From Candidatus Aminicenantales bacterium (GTDB lineage: Bacteria; Acidobacteriota; Aminicenantia; Aminicenantales; UBA4085), in assembly GCA_049515535.1 (NCBI GenBank), contig JBEKTZ010000015.1, positions 1 through 64,000 on the forward strand: DNA of 64,000 nt, written 5' to 3'. Positions 9,001 through 24,000 of the stretch are shown one piece after another (the stretch's first letter is position 1; each line of letters starts with the position of its first letter). A program made the position numbers.

Positions 9001-12000
9001 CCCAAACGGTACGCGGTGGTGAGTCCGGAATTCGTCCACTTGACGCCCGAATGCGGCTGGTATCCCCGGCCGGGTCTTCCCGAATCCCTGCTTTTTCCGT
9101 CCAGGACCAAGCGGGATTTCACGCGGTACGCTCTGACGGTCACCGTGCCGGCGGCCCTCACGGCCGTTTCCCAAGGAACGCCGACGGCGAGCGACGCGGG
9201 CAACGAACGGCAATTCGTTTTTCAGCCAGAGACGCCTCTCCCGCAACTCTCGCTGACGGTCGGCCGTTATGATCAAAAGTCGGTCACCGTGGACGGAGTC
9301 CGCTACGGGCTCTATCTGCTCGCCGGGCATGATCGGTTCACTTCGAATTTCAAGGATATTTCCGGAGACCTGCCTCAGCTCATTAAGCAGATCAAGGACG
9401 GATACGAGATCCAGCTGGGATTGAACTATCCTTATAAGCAATTTTCCCTTGTGGAAACGCCGATCCAGGTGACGAGCTTGAGCCGGCCCTGGACCATGGC
9501 CCAGGAACAAGTCCAGCCGCAGATCGTTTTCCTGCCCGAGATGGGAGTCTTTTGCGCCAACGCCAATTTCCTGACCGGGGTGCGAATCCCCGGCCAAAGC
9601 GCACCGGCCGCCGCCCGTCGCGCCGGGGCCGGACGGGGGGGAGCGGACGTCAGCCCGAAAGATATTCAGCGTCAGATGTTCAATCTTTTTGTCCAGAGTA
9701 ACCTGATCGCGACGCAGTCGGCCCTGGCCCTCCTGGGAGGGCTGCAGCGGGCCCCTTTGGGCCTCCGGATCGACTCGAATTTCGATGCCGGCTTTAATAT
9801 ATATCCGAATTTTCTGACCTATGCGTCCCACTTCGATATCGCGGAGTGGCCTCTTTTCGGTTACTCGATGGAAACCTACCTCCGGGAGCGGGTCATTTTG
9901 CAGGCCGGCGGCCTGATGCGTATCGGTCTGGGAAACAATACTGTCCAGGAGGAGATCAATAAATTTCTATTGGATCACTCTCTTTCCGACGCCCTCCGGC
10001 CCTCGGGCCGGGTGACCTGGCCGGAGGCCTCGATTCTGCAGGAAAAAGGAAAAGCTCTCCTGATTCTCATCCGGGCCAAGCTCGGAACGGCCGACTTCGA
10101 TGAGCGGCTTCTCGGATTTCTCAAAGAACATCGTTTCCAATCGATCTCGCGGAAAGCCGTTGAGGATTTCTTCGCGAGAATGGGACGACTGGATTTGGAC
10201 AAGACGATCGCCTCCTGGTATCTGGGCAAGGGTTTGCCGGGGTTCGTCTTCGACGATGTCGAAAGTTACCGGGTTCTTGAAGGCGAAAAAACCAAATTCC
10301 AGATCAAATTCCAGGTCGCCAATCCGACGGACGTGGAAGGCGTCATCAAGATCAATCTCGCGTTGAGAGGCGGCGGCGCCCGCGGCGGAATGGGGGGGGG
10401 CATGGGTCTGGGCGCGTTGGCCTCGGCGCAGGAAACGCGCACCGTTCTTCTTCCGCCGCAGACCGTCAAGGAGGTCGGCATCGTCCTCGATCAGGCCTCG
10501 GCCATGACGACCATCGACACCTCCATGTCCAGGAATCTGCCCGGAGTTTTCACCCTGCCTTTCAGCAACCAGCAGCCGCGTCCCGGGATCAAGGCGTTCG
10601 ACGGCGAATCGGCCAGACCCTATGTCCAGGCCCCGCCCGGAGCGGATGGAGAATATACCGTCGATAATGTAGATGCGGGTTTCATGCTTCCCGAAAAGGG
10701 ACGGGAAAACTGGCTGCGGAACATGGTCCGCGGCCTCTTTGTCCCGAATGCCGATGAAGGGGATTCCGTCGCCCTCGCGACTCTGAGGAATCCTCCGGAT
10801 TATTGGGAGCCGATCATCAGTCAGAATTTCTACGGCCGGTTCGTCCGGTCCGCTTATGTGAAGAAATCCGGACAAGGCGCGAGCAAGGTCGTCTGGACGG
10901 TCAATCTCAGCGCGGCCGGAACCTACAATATCTATTTTTATCATGAAGGGATGGGCGCGGGCATGGGCCGGGGAGGCAATGTCGTTTCCATGATGGCGGG
11001 CCGCGGTTTCGCGCCGCAGGCCGGGGGCCAGCCTTCGGGCGGCCAGCGCGGAGGCGGAATGGCGGCCGGAGGGCAGGCGTCGGGCCGCGGAATGGCCGGA
11101 CCGCAGATGCAGCCCGGGAAGAAGCATTTTCTGATTCATCACGACGGCAAGGTCGAGGAGGTCGTCGTCGACCTCAAGGACGTGCCGATCGGTTGGACTT
11201 TGATCGGGAGCTACACCTTGGCCGCCGGCGAGAACCGCATCGAATTGACGGACAAGAATGAGGAGCGTTTTGTCTTGGCGGATGCCGTCAAATGGGTCCA
11301 ACAGCGGTAGGCGACCGCCGAGGAAATTCCTATTCTATCAGGAGCGATGGACATGATATTAAAAGCGGCAAGATCCTCTATGCCTCGCAAATGGGCGAGG
11401 TTCCGGTATTTGTTCCTGGCGGGCGGCCTGGCCTTCCTCTTCCGCCTGCCGCTCCCGGCGACGGAGATCCTGACTCTGGATAAAGCCCTGGAATTTGCTT
11501 TTCGCAACAGCCCTTCCATCCAGGAGGCTGCTTTCCGGCTGCAGACCAGCGCGGAAAACCTCAAGGCCCAGCAGGCCGGATTGAAGTCCCAGTTCAGCAT
11601 CACCCTCAACCCGATCAGCATCTCGGACACGAGAACCTTCAGCGATCTGACGTCCAGCTACAATACCCAGAGCATTACCAAAACCGCGGCCAGCTTTTCC
11701 GTCCGCCAGCCCATCAAATGGACGGACGGCACTCTGACGATCACCGATAGCTTCAACTGGCAGGAGTCCTCGAGTTCTTTCGTGGGCGGGGCCAAGGCGG
11801 GCGCTTACAGCAACTCCTTGTATTTAAAATTCAGTCAGCCCCTATTCACTTATAACCGGACCACGATGCAGATCAGGGAGCTCGAGCTGTCCCTGGAAAA
11901 CGCCCAGCTGAACTACGACCTCCAGAAGCTCTCGATCGAGCGGCAGGTCACCCAACAATTTCTCAACCTTTATTACGACCGGGAAAGCGTCAAGATCGCC

Positions 12001-21000: not shown

Positions 21001-24000
21001 CTGATGCGGATCATCTGCGGGATCCTTCCTCCGAGCCGGGGGAAAGTCTATTTCAACGAGCTGGACCTCGGCGAGTTCCGGGAAGAACTCCAGGCGCTCA
21101 TCGGATACCTGCCCCAGGAATTCGGCACCTACGAAAACATGACCGCCGCCCAATTCCTGGACTATCAGGCCCAGCTCAAGGGCCTCTGGAACCGGCGGAA
21201 ACGGCGGGCGGCCGTGGACGCGTCCTTGCGCTCCGTCCATCTCTTTGACCGGAAAGACGACCGGATCAGAACGTATTCCGGCGGAATGAAACAGCGTCTC
21301 GGCATCGCCCAGACGCTTCTCCATCTTCCCCGGATCCTCGTGGTGGACGAGCCGACAGCGGGCCTCGACCCGACGGAGAGAATCGCTTTCCGCAACCTTC
21401 TTTCGGAATTGGCCCGCGACCGCATCGTGATCTTCTCGACCCATATCATCGAGGATATTTCCATCTCCTGCAACCGGCTCGCGATCCTGCTCAAGGGCCG
21501 GGTGCGATTCATCGGAACCCCGACCGAGCTGGTCAATCTGACGAGAGGCTCGGTCTGGCAGATCTTCGTGGATGACGCGGGCTTCGAATCGATTCGCCGG
21601 GTCCATAAGGTCGTCCATCATCTCCGCGACGGGAACAGGATCAGGGCCCGGATCCTCTCCGCGAAAAGGCCGGCGGAGGACGCCCAGCCGGTCGTCCCGA
21701 CGCTCGAGGATTCTTATATGTGGCTGCTGGGACAGGAGGGATGATCCGATGACGGACAGCAACGGCAAGGGCCGGATCGGCCGCGGGTTGGTTGACGGGA
21801 TCCTCGAGGGATTGATCTTTTTCCGTTATAACGCCGCCAACGTGTTCGCCGGCCGGGCGATCCTCTTCATGATCCTGGCCAGCTCCGTTTTCCTGGCGGT
21901 CGTCGTCCTGAATCTCCTGAGCCGCTCCGGGGATTTTTCCGGCCAGAAAATATACGATCTTCTTCTTGTCCCGGGGATCCTGCTCGTCTTCTATCCCGCC
22001 GTCTTCGCCCTCCAGAACGACAAGGACGCCGGGATGATCGAGAATCTTTTCGGCATTCCGGACTACCGGTACAAGATCTGGCTGGCTCGCTATTTCACTC
22101 TCTATGTTCTCGTGGCCGCTCTTCTTTTTCTCCTGGGGGTCTTTTGCCGGGTAGGGCTGGCTTCCTTTCCCCTGGGCAAGATGATGCTGGAGCTCATGGT
22201 CCCGGTCGTCTTCGTGGGGAGCCTTTCCTTTTTTATCGCCAGCCGGACGGGCAGCGGGCTCGCCACCGCCGTCATCATGGTCGTCGTCCTCCTCCTGTTC
22301 TGGCTTTTCCGGAACTCCCTCGCGGACAGCCCCTGGTACCTCTTTCACAATCCTTTCACCGCCGGGAACGAAGTCAAGACCATGCTCCTGGCCCGAACGA
22401 CGATCGCCAACCGGCTTTATTTCATCAGCGCCTCGATTTTTCTGACGATGCTGGCCCTGCTCCGCCTGCAGAAAAGGGAAAAATACGTCTGATTATGGAT
22501 TATTGATACGTTCGACGGCGCCAAACCCCGATTTTAAATCGGGGTTTGGCGCCGCTCAGTATTAACCCTGAGCATACCCCGGGCTTCAGCCCGGGGAGTC
22601 GAATGGGTTGATTTTTGAATTCCCCGCGCGCGATCCCCCCCCCCGCGGGATTTTTGGGTAAAACCGAGAATCAAATCCCCAGCGACAATCGTTCGGCCAG
22701 TGCGGGCGGAAGGCCGGCCTTGATGATTTTCGCTTGAGCGTCGTCGAGATCGTATTCGAGACGATGGAACTTGACGGTGTGGACGTCCGAGTCGTAAATG
22801 GCGAAGGCCGCGCGCGGATTCCGGTCGCGAGGCTGACCGACGGAGCCGGGGTTGATGAGATAAGTCACGTCCTTCTCGAGCTTGACTTCGTTGGCATTCC
22901 CCTCGAGGAAAGTGCTCTCCACCGCGCCGTCGCGCTTGGCATACACGAAGGGAAAGTGGGTATGGCCGAAAAAGCAAAGAGGGCGTTTCAAATAGTCGAA
23001 CGCCTCCGCGGCGTCGAACTCGCCGAAGATATAGTAGTCTTCATCGAATGGGGAGCCGTGGCAGATGGAGAACCGCTCGTCGACGACCTGAGGGCCTTTT
23101 TTGACGTGGCCCAGGAATTCGGCGTTCTTTTTCAGGATCTTTTTTTTGGTCCAATAGATCGCCGCCGCCGCGATGGGATTGAACGTCTCGATCGAGTCCT
23201 GCCCGGTGACGGCCTTGTCGTGGTTGCCTCGGATGATCGACAAGGGTCTGAGGTTCCGGACTTTTTGGATGGTTTCGTTGGGTGAGGCGCCGTAACCGAC
23301 CAGATCTCCGAGGCAGACGAAATGGTCGATCTTTTTTTTCTGGATGAACTTCAGAAGGGCGTTGAGCGCCTCGAGGTTGCCGTGGATATCACTGAAGATC
23401 AGATAGCGCATGCCGTTCCTCTCCGGGATTTCTTAAACGTATCATAAAGCTTGTGGGCGTGAAAAGAGCTGCGCACGAGCGGCCCCGATGAAACATCGGA
23501 AAAGCCGAGCTCCAGGGCGATATCCCCGAGCCGGGCGAATTCCTCCGGCGGATGAAATTCGACGACGGCCGCGTGGGCGCGGGTCGGTTGGAGATACTGC
23601 CCGATGGTCAGCAGGTCGCAGCCGGCCGCTCGCAGGTCGCCAAAGGTCCGGAGCAGGTCGTCTTCGGATTCTCCCAACCCGATCATCAGCCCGGATTTCG
23701 TCAGGGCGCCCCAAGTTTTGGCCTTGCCGAGGACGCCCAGCGACCTCCGGTAATTCGTTGCCGGACGGCCGATTTTCGGATAGAGAGATTCCGTGGTTTC
23801 GAGGTTATGATTGAGAATGTCGGGACCGGCGTCCACCACGCTCTTGAGCGCGTCCTCGCGGCCGTCGAAATCCGGGACGAGGACCTCGACGCTCGCGGCC
23901 GGGATCCTTTTTCGGAGGGCCCGGATGGTCCGGACGAATTGCGACGCGCCCCCGTCCGGCAGATCGTCCCGCGTCACCGACGTGACGACGACATGCGCGA

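Follow-up and report, generated by a model that had tools for sequence, protein, structure and literature searches.

An RND::ABC fusion in a conserved seven-gene cassette suggests an ABC transporter tethered to a heterotrimeric RND pump

Introduction

In tripartite export, RND and ABC proteins count as alternative engines. What, then, is a single polypeptide that carries both? The gene that raises this question lies in a window of 64,000 nucleotides from a Candidatus Aminicenantales bacterium, and an earlier note on this DNA read its product as an RND pump, encoded in a five-gene cassette, whose lost proton relay pointed to ATP as the driving force. Is the fusion genuine and conserved? Which genes accompany it? 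Does the state of the relay speak for ATP drive? How could NBDs, which act as dimers, fit an RND trimer? We consider it probable, at about 0.6, that the cassette encodes one envelope export machine, in which an ABC transporter is tethered 1:1 to a heterotrimeric RND transporter and cargo is relayed outward. The system looks less like a plain ATP-driven RND pump than like two kinds of exporter in one machine, and a widespread family would thereby hard-wire both engines.

The fused gene

The fusion (17014-21744; like all genes described here, on the forward strand) encodes 1576 residues in a single open reading frame, with an RND transporter, RND-B, at residues 1-1035 and an ABC NBD reaching residue 1576. 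Pfam assigns ACR_tran (E 1.9e-155) and ABC_tran (residues 1306-1449, E 1.5e-26). An assembly artefact is ruled out by homologues, by loci in other genomes and by a contig from another study (run X2), which covers 6700-22529 with 103 substitutions and no gaps. Among the 120 best homologues listed, 112 exceed 1500 residues and all 120 carry both Pfam families. The joining of RND and ATPase claimed in the earlier note is real and conserved, and a search of the open-access literature found no description of such a cassette. The novelty is one of architecture, each module coming from a known superfamily.

The RND-B part (17014..20118) is a complete RND, in which Asp399 and Glu406 of TM4, Arg976/978 and Thr983 are invariant and TM10 carries N-N. 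A two-helix membrane hairpin (residues 1036-1108; 20119..20337), identified by hydropathy and modelled as helices H12-32 and H36-65 in module numbering, links it to the NBD. The first β-strand and A-loop of the NBD follow (residues 1110-1121; 20341..20376), with Lys1119 and Tyr1121 invariant in 73/73 sequences; solved NBDs align, from their own N-terminus, from module residues 72-77 (Z 24.7-27.9). Inside the β-hairpin lies a helical membrane insertion of about 180 residues (1123-1300; 20380..20913), modelled as four long helices (H110-138, H142-162, H175-203 and H206-232), two of them strongly hydrophobic; two helices are clearly detected by hydropathy. From strand to Walker A the distance is 209, against 32 in the free NBD of the same operon; 21 of 23 distant fusions fall in the range 190-226. 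The additional membrane segment of some 270 residues reported previously is for the most part this insertion within the NBD, preceded by the hairpin and the NBD's own first strand.

The NBD core and C-terminal domain (residues 1301-1576; 20914..21744), assigned by motifs and conservation, form the most conserved part of the operon, with 110 of 210 core columns at least 95% conserved. The catalytic motifs are intact, as had been noted, in 72-73 of the 73 aligned fusions. Conservation within the fusion is lowest in the hairpin and the insertion, with mean column identity of 0.51-0.53 compared to 0.73-0.82 for the TM domains and NBD core. A word-limited search of 4434 candidates did not find the C-terminal module in stand-alone form; three shorter matches each lay on a contig below 3 kb. 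The fused and free NBDs are sister clades when set against ten other NBDs of the genome (supports 0.985, 0.79 and 0.855). Judged by these comparisons, the covalent link is ancient and of single origin.

The cassette

The operon holds seven genes, not five: free NBD, big permease, outer membrane factor (OMF), periplasmic adaptor (MFP), RND-A, RND-B::NBD and small permease. The first two, a free ABC ATPase (6821-7753) and an ABC-2::M1-like permease (7750-11310), lie upstream of the OMF and are conserved. A promoter scan gave a 10/12 site at 6722-6751; it found eight sites where 4.3±1.9 were expected and is not used as evidence.

In 80 near loci, counting those with room, the big permease is present in 53/54, the small permease in 76/77, RND-A in 65/67, the MFP in 60/62 and the OMF in 59/60; the free NBD is visible in 42 of the 80. 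Five exceptional loci were followed up, and in each the free NBD and big permease lie on another contig or further upstream. In a phylum sample of 251 genomes, 27 carry the big permease, always beside RND genes; 25 of these show the fusion, the other two being cut by contig ends, and the free NBD adjoins the big permease in 24 of 26 others. The genomes in these counts are related and are not independent observations. Carrier loci occur in Bacteroidota, KSB1, Zixibacteria, Latescibacterota, Gemmatimonadota, Calditrichota, Aminicenantes and others; Puteibacter and Carboxylicivirga are cultured carriers and are non-pathogenic.

The OMF (TolC family; 11347..12855; OEP E 3.1e-45) is an accessory, dispensable member. 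It is missing from all 26 distant cassettes, so crossing of the outer membrane in those genomes would need another partner; in four of five genomes examined the only OMFs found are distant ones. The MFP (12821..13924; TIGR01730 above cut-off), present in 25/26 distant genomes, is probably a lipoprotein, with a lipobox-like pattern in 50/61 sequences; its start is probably an ATG at about 12860, since this avoids overlap with the OMF. In cassettes that have been rearranged as divergent units, the free NBD still accompanies the big permease and the fusion still accompanies the small one, and the OMF is lost. Some genomes have two or three big-permease paralogues per fusion, with two paralogues away from the cassette and one extra paralogue accompanied by its own NBD copy. 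A strict 1:1 machine does not require such extra copies, which count against it.

The ABC components

The free NBD (310 residues; 6821..7753; ABC_tran E 1.7e-34) is a DrrA-type ATPase, its best NCBIfam matches being drrA and GldA, both under the cut-offs. It shares 46% identity with the fused NBD (BLASTP 124/270), and its catalytic motifs are all intact, as they are in 33-37 of 37 aligned sequences. Both NBDs carry Walker A, Q-loop, signature, Walker B Glu and H-loop.

The big permease (1186 residues; 7750..11310) combines an ABC-2 (type V) permease at residues ~1-280 (ABC2_membrane_2 E 1.6e-08), an M1-aminopeptidase-like domain at ~300-840 and then Golvesin_C (E 4.3e-12). Peptidase_M1 is matched in 23/27 members, and the family profile matches M1 peptidase structures from E 1.6e-06 over the C-terminal part of the domain only. 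The HExxH zinc motif occurs in 0/52 near big permeases and was not flagged in the distant proteins. The domain is catalytically dead, to judge by this motif, and hydropathy places it in the periplasm. An Atlas search with the M1-like region returned unnamed clusters.

The small permease (247 residues; 21749..22492, starting at 21749) is identified by its AlphaFold model (pLDDT 86.8) as a type V (ABC-2) permease. The top 16 of 48,161 chains compared with it are ABC permease domains of the same fold, NosY being the best (Z 16.3, rmsd 3.9, 220 aligned) and PmtCD giving Z 14.7. ABC2_membrane_3 is weakly matched by 10/73 members, and a PDB sequence search with the family profile returned nothing relevant. 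Foldseek gave no match at E≤0.001; its top rows are nonetheless type V permeases. The suggestion that this small membrane protein partners the NBD module is supported by its fold and by its position alongside the fusion in 76/77 loci with room.

The ABC-2/ABCG fold is thus present in both permeases, in the small one by fold and in the big one by a Pfam match above cut-off. They gave no match to each other by BLASTP or hhalign (probability 1.9%). Their predicted complex scored a weak 0.32, exactly at a mark reached by 116/157 solved complexes and 2/215 mismatches, where scores at the mark and up to 0.60 came from 18 of the 157 solved complexes and from both mismatches. The best of three controls scored 0.00, runs share at least 91% of contacts and partner pLDDT is at least 67; the score may reflect likeness, because type V dimers have already been solved. 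With exactly two intact NBDs and two permease domains of type V, the genes would supply one complete ABC transporter. The apparent conflict between NBD dimers and RND trimers, raised earlier as a difficulty, largely disappears when the second NBD and both permeases enter the count.

The RND subunits and the proton relay

RND-A (1028 residues; 13931..17017; ACR_tran E 1e-227) is the unfused partner. Its closest solved relative is MdtB (9lyq, E 2.4e-104), and the alignment to it sets the relay columns. RND-A and RND-B each have full-length ACR_tran, two large periplasmic loops and about 12 TM helices. RND-B clusters with RNDs that are encoded second in unfused tandem pairs (support 0.949), and the A/B pair is therefore older than the fusion; tandem genes and tree are consistent with two different RND subunits per trimer.

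AcrB loses export altogether when D408 or K940 is substituted (PMC8277102 section 5.1.5). The D408-equivalent of RND-B is never Asp (N67, S5, C1 in 73 aligned fusions) and the K940-equivalent is Asn in 73/73, as the earlier note had it. Its statement that the partner RND keeps DD holds for the copy in the window and fails for the family: the RND-A consensus is D-N in TM4 (61/62) and N-D in TM10, with the window copy as lone D-D/S-N exception. Of the canonical D407-D408-K940 triad, the second Asp is missing from 73/73 RND-B and 61/62 RND-A, and the Lys throughout. The D407-equivalent is invariant (RND-B 73/73, RND-A 62/62), as are those of E414, R971 and T978 in both RNDs. RND-A keeps its TM10 Asp in 50/62 near and 26/27 distant sequences, this second Asp being missing from 11/62 RND-A; the most distant clade shows further decay in TM10 of RND-B, to N-P. 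An RND permease is expected to have one or more central acidic residues in its TM domain (PMC8277102 section 5.1.5), and the D407-equivalent supplies one. With the D408 and K940 equivalents missing to this extent, we infer rather than observe ion coupling.

Is the altered relay tied to the ATPase? A DN/NN motif occurs in 81/128 lower-scoring RND representatives, taken without genomic context and cut at 900 bits, so that a few may be distant cassette members (distant RND-As score 839-917; the raw count of 90/144 mixes these in). A cleaner control is provided by 20 unfused relatives in 19 genomes, picked among high-scoring matches on long contigs: 13 have the motif with no ABC gene within 20 kb. 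Specificity of relay loss to the fusion is ruled out, and the loss is a clade trait. The argument from lost relay to ATP drive is not supported, and the ordinary DD/K pumps of the same genome that had served as control belong to a different RND clade. Sodium coupling of the D-N/N-N site is a lead; VexF is Na+-dependent.

These residues bear directly on the possibility that closure of the NBD pair acts through the hairpin and inserted helices on RND-B and drives the trimer cycle, the permeases serving as a mechanical frame with no cargo path. Were this so, ATP-driven closure would replace or supplement the ion gradient, in the first ATP-powered RND. The ancient covalent link, the lack of an unfused module beyond matches on contigs below 3 kb, the missing D408 and K940 equivalents and the N-P decay all agree with it, as does the match to NosY, from a type V system that works by mechanical movement, not translocation. 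We nevertheless regard it as unlikely, given the same motif in 13/20 unfused relatives, the invariant TM4 Asp and Glu and TM11 Arg and Thr, the retained TM10 Asp of RND-A, and the poor conservation of hairpin and insertion, which leads one to expect an anchor more than a force-transmitting interface.

A model and its alternatives

In the tethered arrangement that we favour, a heteromeric type V ABC transporter would consist of one half made of free NBD and ABC-2::M1-like permease and another of fused NBD and small permease. It would stand beside an RND heterotrimer, probably of A2B composition like MdtB2C, with the MFP and an OMF that is either the cluster's own or borrowed. The fusion would be the tether: the single RND-B of each trimer would contribute one NBD as partner for the free NBD, and there would therefore be exactly one ABC unit per trimer. 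The six extra helices may anchor the fused NBD in the membrane region next to its permease. ATP would act on the ABC permeases, flipping or extracting an amphipathic cargo, perhaps a lipid, lipopeptide or peptide-bearing envelope molecule, presented on the dead-peptidase domain. The RND, energised by the ion gradient mainly through two Asp residues of RND-A, would pick up cargo on the periplasmic side and expel it through MFP and OMF.

Might the operon instead encode two homodimeric ABC transporters, (free NBD + big permease)2 and (fused NBD + small permease)2, the latter alone attached to the RND, on an AB2 trimer? The movement of the gene pairs as two units, full consensus sites that would let each NBD homodimerise, and the additional paralogues of the big permease, of which one comes with an NBD copy of its own, are all compatible with this, as are the weak heterodimer score and the missing profile match between the permeases. 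That score did pass its controls, if weakly, and the big permease was never found without the RND cassette in 27 carriers of 251 genomes; we hold this arrangement to be very doubtful. Least probable is that one module does not transport, the RND being a passive scaffold or conduit, as passages of PMC8427324 and PMC11539658 propose for relay-less MmpL7 with DrrABC, or the ABC and dead-peptidase domain a sensor or gate licensing an ion-driven RND: a domain lacking its zinc motif in 52/52 would suit a binding role and 26 genomes have the cluster without an OMF, but both RNDs, in contrast to MmpL7, retain invariant Asp/Glu in TM4 and Arg/Thr in TM11, their TM domains are highly conserved (0.73-0.82), and the loci examined conserve neither a regulatory output domain nor a partner gene.

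Beyond the proposed tethered machine, the locus offers an NBD with a membrane-embedded insertion, and it draws attention to a large RND clade, apparently uncharacterised, whose relay is D-N/N-N. Cooperation of an inner-membrane ABC exporter with an RND, proposed for DrrABC-MmpL7, becomes testable in one purifiable complex.

Comparison with known systems

NosDFY and PmtABCD share the permease fold (NosY Z 16.3, PmtCD Z 14.7), and Pmt has two NBD and two permease genes; in NosDFY, ATP moves a periplasmic subunit. Neither has an RND partner or an NBD with a membrane insertion. In the seven-gene cassette the large periplasmic domain, joined to one of the permeases, has an M1 fold that lacks the zinc motif. 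The insertion of CFTR NBD1 comes after the first strand. According to passages of PMC2217481 this regulatory insertion (residues 404-435) lies, like ours, in the N-terminal antiparallel β-subdomain; it is soluble, mobile, dispensable for gating and about 30 residues long, compared to about 180 with membrane helices in the fused NBD.

MdtABC (MdtB2C) and MuxABC likewise have two tandem RND genes and one MFP, and a passage of PMC4338810 indicates that in MdtB2C the proton relay matters mostly in one subunit. MdtB, in contrast, has the TM4 DD and TM10 Lys, and these systems have neither fused NBD nor ABC genes. Mycobacterial MmpL7 with DrrABC likewise combines a non-canonical-relay RND and a heteromeric type V exporter (two different permeases and a DrrA-type ATPase) in one cluster, both needed for PDIM export according to passages of PMC11539658; physical association is a proposal there and in PMC8427324. 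That pair differs in having no fusion, no MFP or OMF, a single ATPase gene and no peptidase-like domain, and MmpL7 is an MmpL-type RND entirely without relay residues.

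The fusion and its operon

The RND domain and the ABC nucleotide-binding domain (NBD) lie on a single 1576-aa ORF at 17014-21744. An assembly artefact was ruled out: a contig from an independent study spans 6700-22529 with no gaps and 103 substitutions relative to the window, of the 120 homologues listed, 112 are longer than 1500 aa and every one has both Pfam families, and among 385 candidate stretches from the species-genome collection 379 encode a relative. The fusion proposed in an earlier note is therefore real. Among the matches listed, the nearest named homologues come from Candidatus Aminicenantes, and the protein bears generic names in databases. 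Carboxylicivirga and Puteibacter, which are marine and in culture, are among the carriers. At six loci (L009, L053, L062, L070, L074 and L086) it is broken into several ORFs, probably by sequencing frameshifts.

The operon has seven genes. In the near set, loci fetched for the best 80 of the 379 relatives, their order is constant: free NBD, big permease, outer membrane factor (OMF), membrane fusion protein (MFP), unfused RND (RND-A), fusion and small protein. Two of these genes lie upstream of the OMF. The first (6821-7753) encodes the free NBD, a DrrA-type ATPase that shares 46% identity with the fused NBD and matches it better than any other NBD of the genome; it overlaps the gene for the big permease (7750-11310), whose 1186 aa include an ABC-2 permease domain, a region resembling M1 peptidases and a Golvesin_C domain. 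Where near loci have room for the gene, RND-A is present in 65/67, MFP in 60/62, OMF in 59/60, the big permease in 53/54 and the small protein in 76/77. The free NBD is seen in 42 of the 80. Nine loci were scored without it; five terminate at or inside the big permease, and the remaining four, together with L060, have free NBD and big permease farther upstream or on another contig. Three of the genomes behind these last five loci hold two to three big-permease paralogues. Loci with two to three paralogues per genome, in tandem or away from the cassette, are L121-L130, L003, L140 and L141.

The flanks (4974-6693 and 22671-27042) encode LptB, a DUF1848 protein, a metallophosphoesterase, lipoyl synthase and a TonB-dependent receptor, and lie outside the conserved cassette; DUF1848 is near the fusion in just one of 80 loci. 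The window also contains repeats. A dispersed element of 120-200 nt with internal inverted arms (3482-3631, 26939-27147 and 42498-42680) gives rise to spurious ORF extensions. A short element just 3′ of the operon (around 22502-22600) is covered by many high-depth contigs and is a multi-copy intergenic repeat. At 1485-2236 a degenerate 245-nt repeat occurs four times with 126-nt periodicity, probably encoding a repeat protein.

Conservation in distant clades

In a sample of 251 genomes from the same phylum, the insertion within the fused NBD (a single query) matched 11, the big permease 27 and the small-protein profile 20. Surroundings were fetched for all 26 other genomes; these genomes are related, hence non-independent, and the counts are descriptive. 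The RND pair adjoins the big permease in 26/26. Two loci are cut by contig ends before the fused NBD, which can be seen in the other 24. The free NBD lies directly beside the big permease in 24 genomes, the exceptions being one cut locus and one damaged cassette. The small protein directly follows the fusion in 21; one is on another contig, two are cut and two were undetected. No OMF was found in the cluster in any of the 26, and the five genomes that were searched for one contained distant OMFs only or none. One clade has divergent units, with free NBD and big permease in one and MFP, RND-A, fusion and small protein in the other. This conservation, the absence of the OMF and the pattern of operon splitting indicate that the ABC genes are core and the OMF is not.

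In the damaged cassette (L082:7805-11911) the fusion is intact and RND-A is reduced to a fragment of 257 aa directly adjoining the big permease; the locus contains neither MFP nor free NBD. One distant genus carries additional small-permease-like genes 3′ of the cassette (L137:1366-2900, L138:18381-19223).

Proton-relay residues

AcrB requires Asp407, Asp408, Lys940 and Arg971, with Thr978 and Glu414 in the network (PMC8277102, section 5.1.5). With relay columns set by alignment to MdtB, the second Asp and the Lys are absent from 73/73 fusions, reproducing the counts of the earlier note. Across the near set, both RNDs keep the equivalents of Asp407, Glu414, Arg971 and Thr978 without exception. 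That the partner RND keeps both Asp residues holds for the window's copy and fails for the family: RND-A has Asp-Asn in TM4 in 61/62, the window copy being the sole exception. An Asp occupies TM10 of RND-A in 50/62 near and 26/27 distant sequences, and 11/62 have just one Asp. In the window RND-A (13931-17017; residues 410 and 929) TM4 carries this Asp and TM10 lacks it, the inverse of the family consensus; from its sequence the second carboxylate looks to have moved as a compensatory change (1/62).

The earlier note took the loss of relay residues as a sign that ATP drives or gates the RND. Of 20 loci fetched for unfused relatives, 13 have the same D-N/N-N motif (TM4/TM10) and no ABC gene within 20 kb; the motif also occurs in 81 of the 128 nearest RND representatives scoring below 900 bits, which are sequences without genomic context. 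Three of the 20 loci hold unfused tandem RND pairs, and the RND part of the fusion clusters with the second genes of such pairs (0.949; tree of 38 sequences). The motif therefore predates the fusion, and it does not count as evidence that the RND is ATP-driven. The fusion itself stands, the proposed mechanism is weakened, and an ATP-driven RND is now improbable, if still the best placed of the alternatives.

The other seven of the 20 loci are of the D-A type, and six of them have a distant NBD in the vicinity; the five of these NBDs scanned are LolD/MacB-like. For the unfused clade with D-A in TM4 and S-N in TM10 (L156, L157, L160-L163), 6/6 loci place an ABC ATPase some 2-5 kb away, possibly a second RND-ABC association or merely a conserved neighbourhood. 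Outside the window, contig C6 of the same genome (102500-115723) holds a tandem pair of unfused RNDs akin to that of the operon, with an MFP and several secreted proteins between the RNDs and a divergent TM4 in the first.

The probable ABC transporter

The RND part of the fusion is followed by two membrane helices (1036-1108) and a strand whose Lys1119 and Tyr1121 are invariant in 73/73. Solved NBDs align with the module model (pLDDT 83.9; Z 24.7-27.9) such that this strand matches their own N-terminus, so the roughly 180 residues after it interrupt the NBD as an insertion. Four long helices are modelled there, two of them clear by averaged hydropathy; their number should be even, since both flanking strands are cytoplasmic. 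The spacing from strand to Walker A is retained in 21/23 distant fusions, with overall length unchanged in the other two. Column conservation is lowest in hairpin and insertion (0.51-0.53) and highest in the NBD core (0.82). A search through 4434 candidates found no unfused form of the module. In a tree of nine of 73 near fusions, nine of 37 near free NBDs and distant ones, set against ten NBDs of the window's genome, fused NBDs form one clade (0.985) with free NBDs as sister (0.855).

By its model (pLDDT 86.8) the small protein (21749-22492) is a type V ABC permease. The model matches NosY (Z 16.3, rmsd 3.9, 220 residues aligned) and also ABCH, PmtCD, ABCG and ABCA; all top 16 of 48,161 chains have this fold, and Foldseek agrees in rank order with E-values lacking significance. 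We consider that the two NBDs, both with intact catalytic motifs, and the two permeases make up one heteromeric ABC transporter. For the predicted pair of permeases the score is 0.32, against 0.00 for the best control, with contacts agreeing to at least 91% and partner pLDDT of at least 67. This is weak support: the score mark is reached by 116/157 solved complexes and 2/215 mismatches, but at 0.60 or below by only 18 of the solved complexes and by both mismatches, and solved type V dimers may lie behind the value. A profile comparison of the big- and small-permease families gave no match. Two separate homodimeric ABC transporters are an unlikely arrangement, more so than an ATP-driven RND. 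That one of the two modules, RND or ABC, does not transport is the least probable alternative, by a little.

The soluble part of the big permease is related to M1 peptidases: it matches Peptidase_M1 in 23/27 members, profile matches to solved M1 peptidases cover the last 130 or so positions only, and the HExxH zinc motif was found in none of 52 M1-like domains. This part is the most variable region (0.49), its gene is the one that duplicates, and it would be a cargo-binding, specificity module.

Proposed mechanism and known systems

Our preferred reading, at a probability of about 0.6, is an ABC transporter tethered 1:1 to an A2B RND trimer and relaying cargo outward; we infer its assembly, energy source, direction and cargo. 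ATP would move or extract cargo at the inner membrane through the ABC transporter, and RND and MFP would hand it on to an OMF. With one ABC transporter per A2B trimer, the mismatch between dimeric NBDs and trimeric RNDs would disappear.

Full-text literature, mainly non-subscription and main texts only, yielded no description of such a fusion or operon, and the architecture is unlike any described transporter. The insertion within the NBD invites comparison with CFTR (PMC2217481). MdtB2C offers a precedent for the stoichiometry and for uneven energy coupling (PMC4338810), and DrrABC with MmpL7 one for a single cargo that needs a type V ABC transporter as well as an RND (PMC11539658, PMC8427324).
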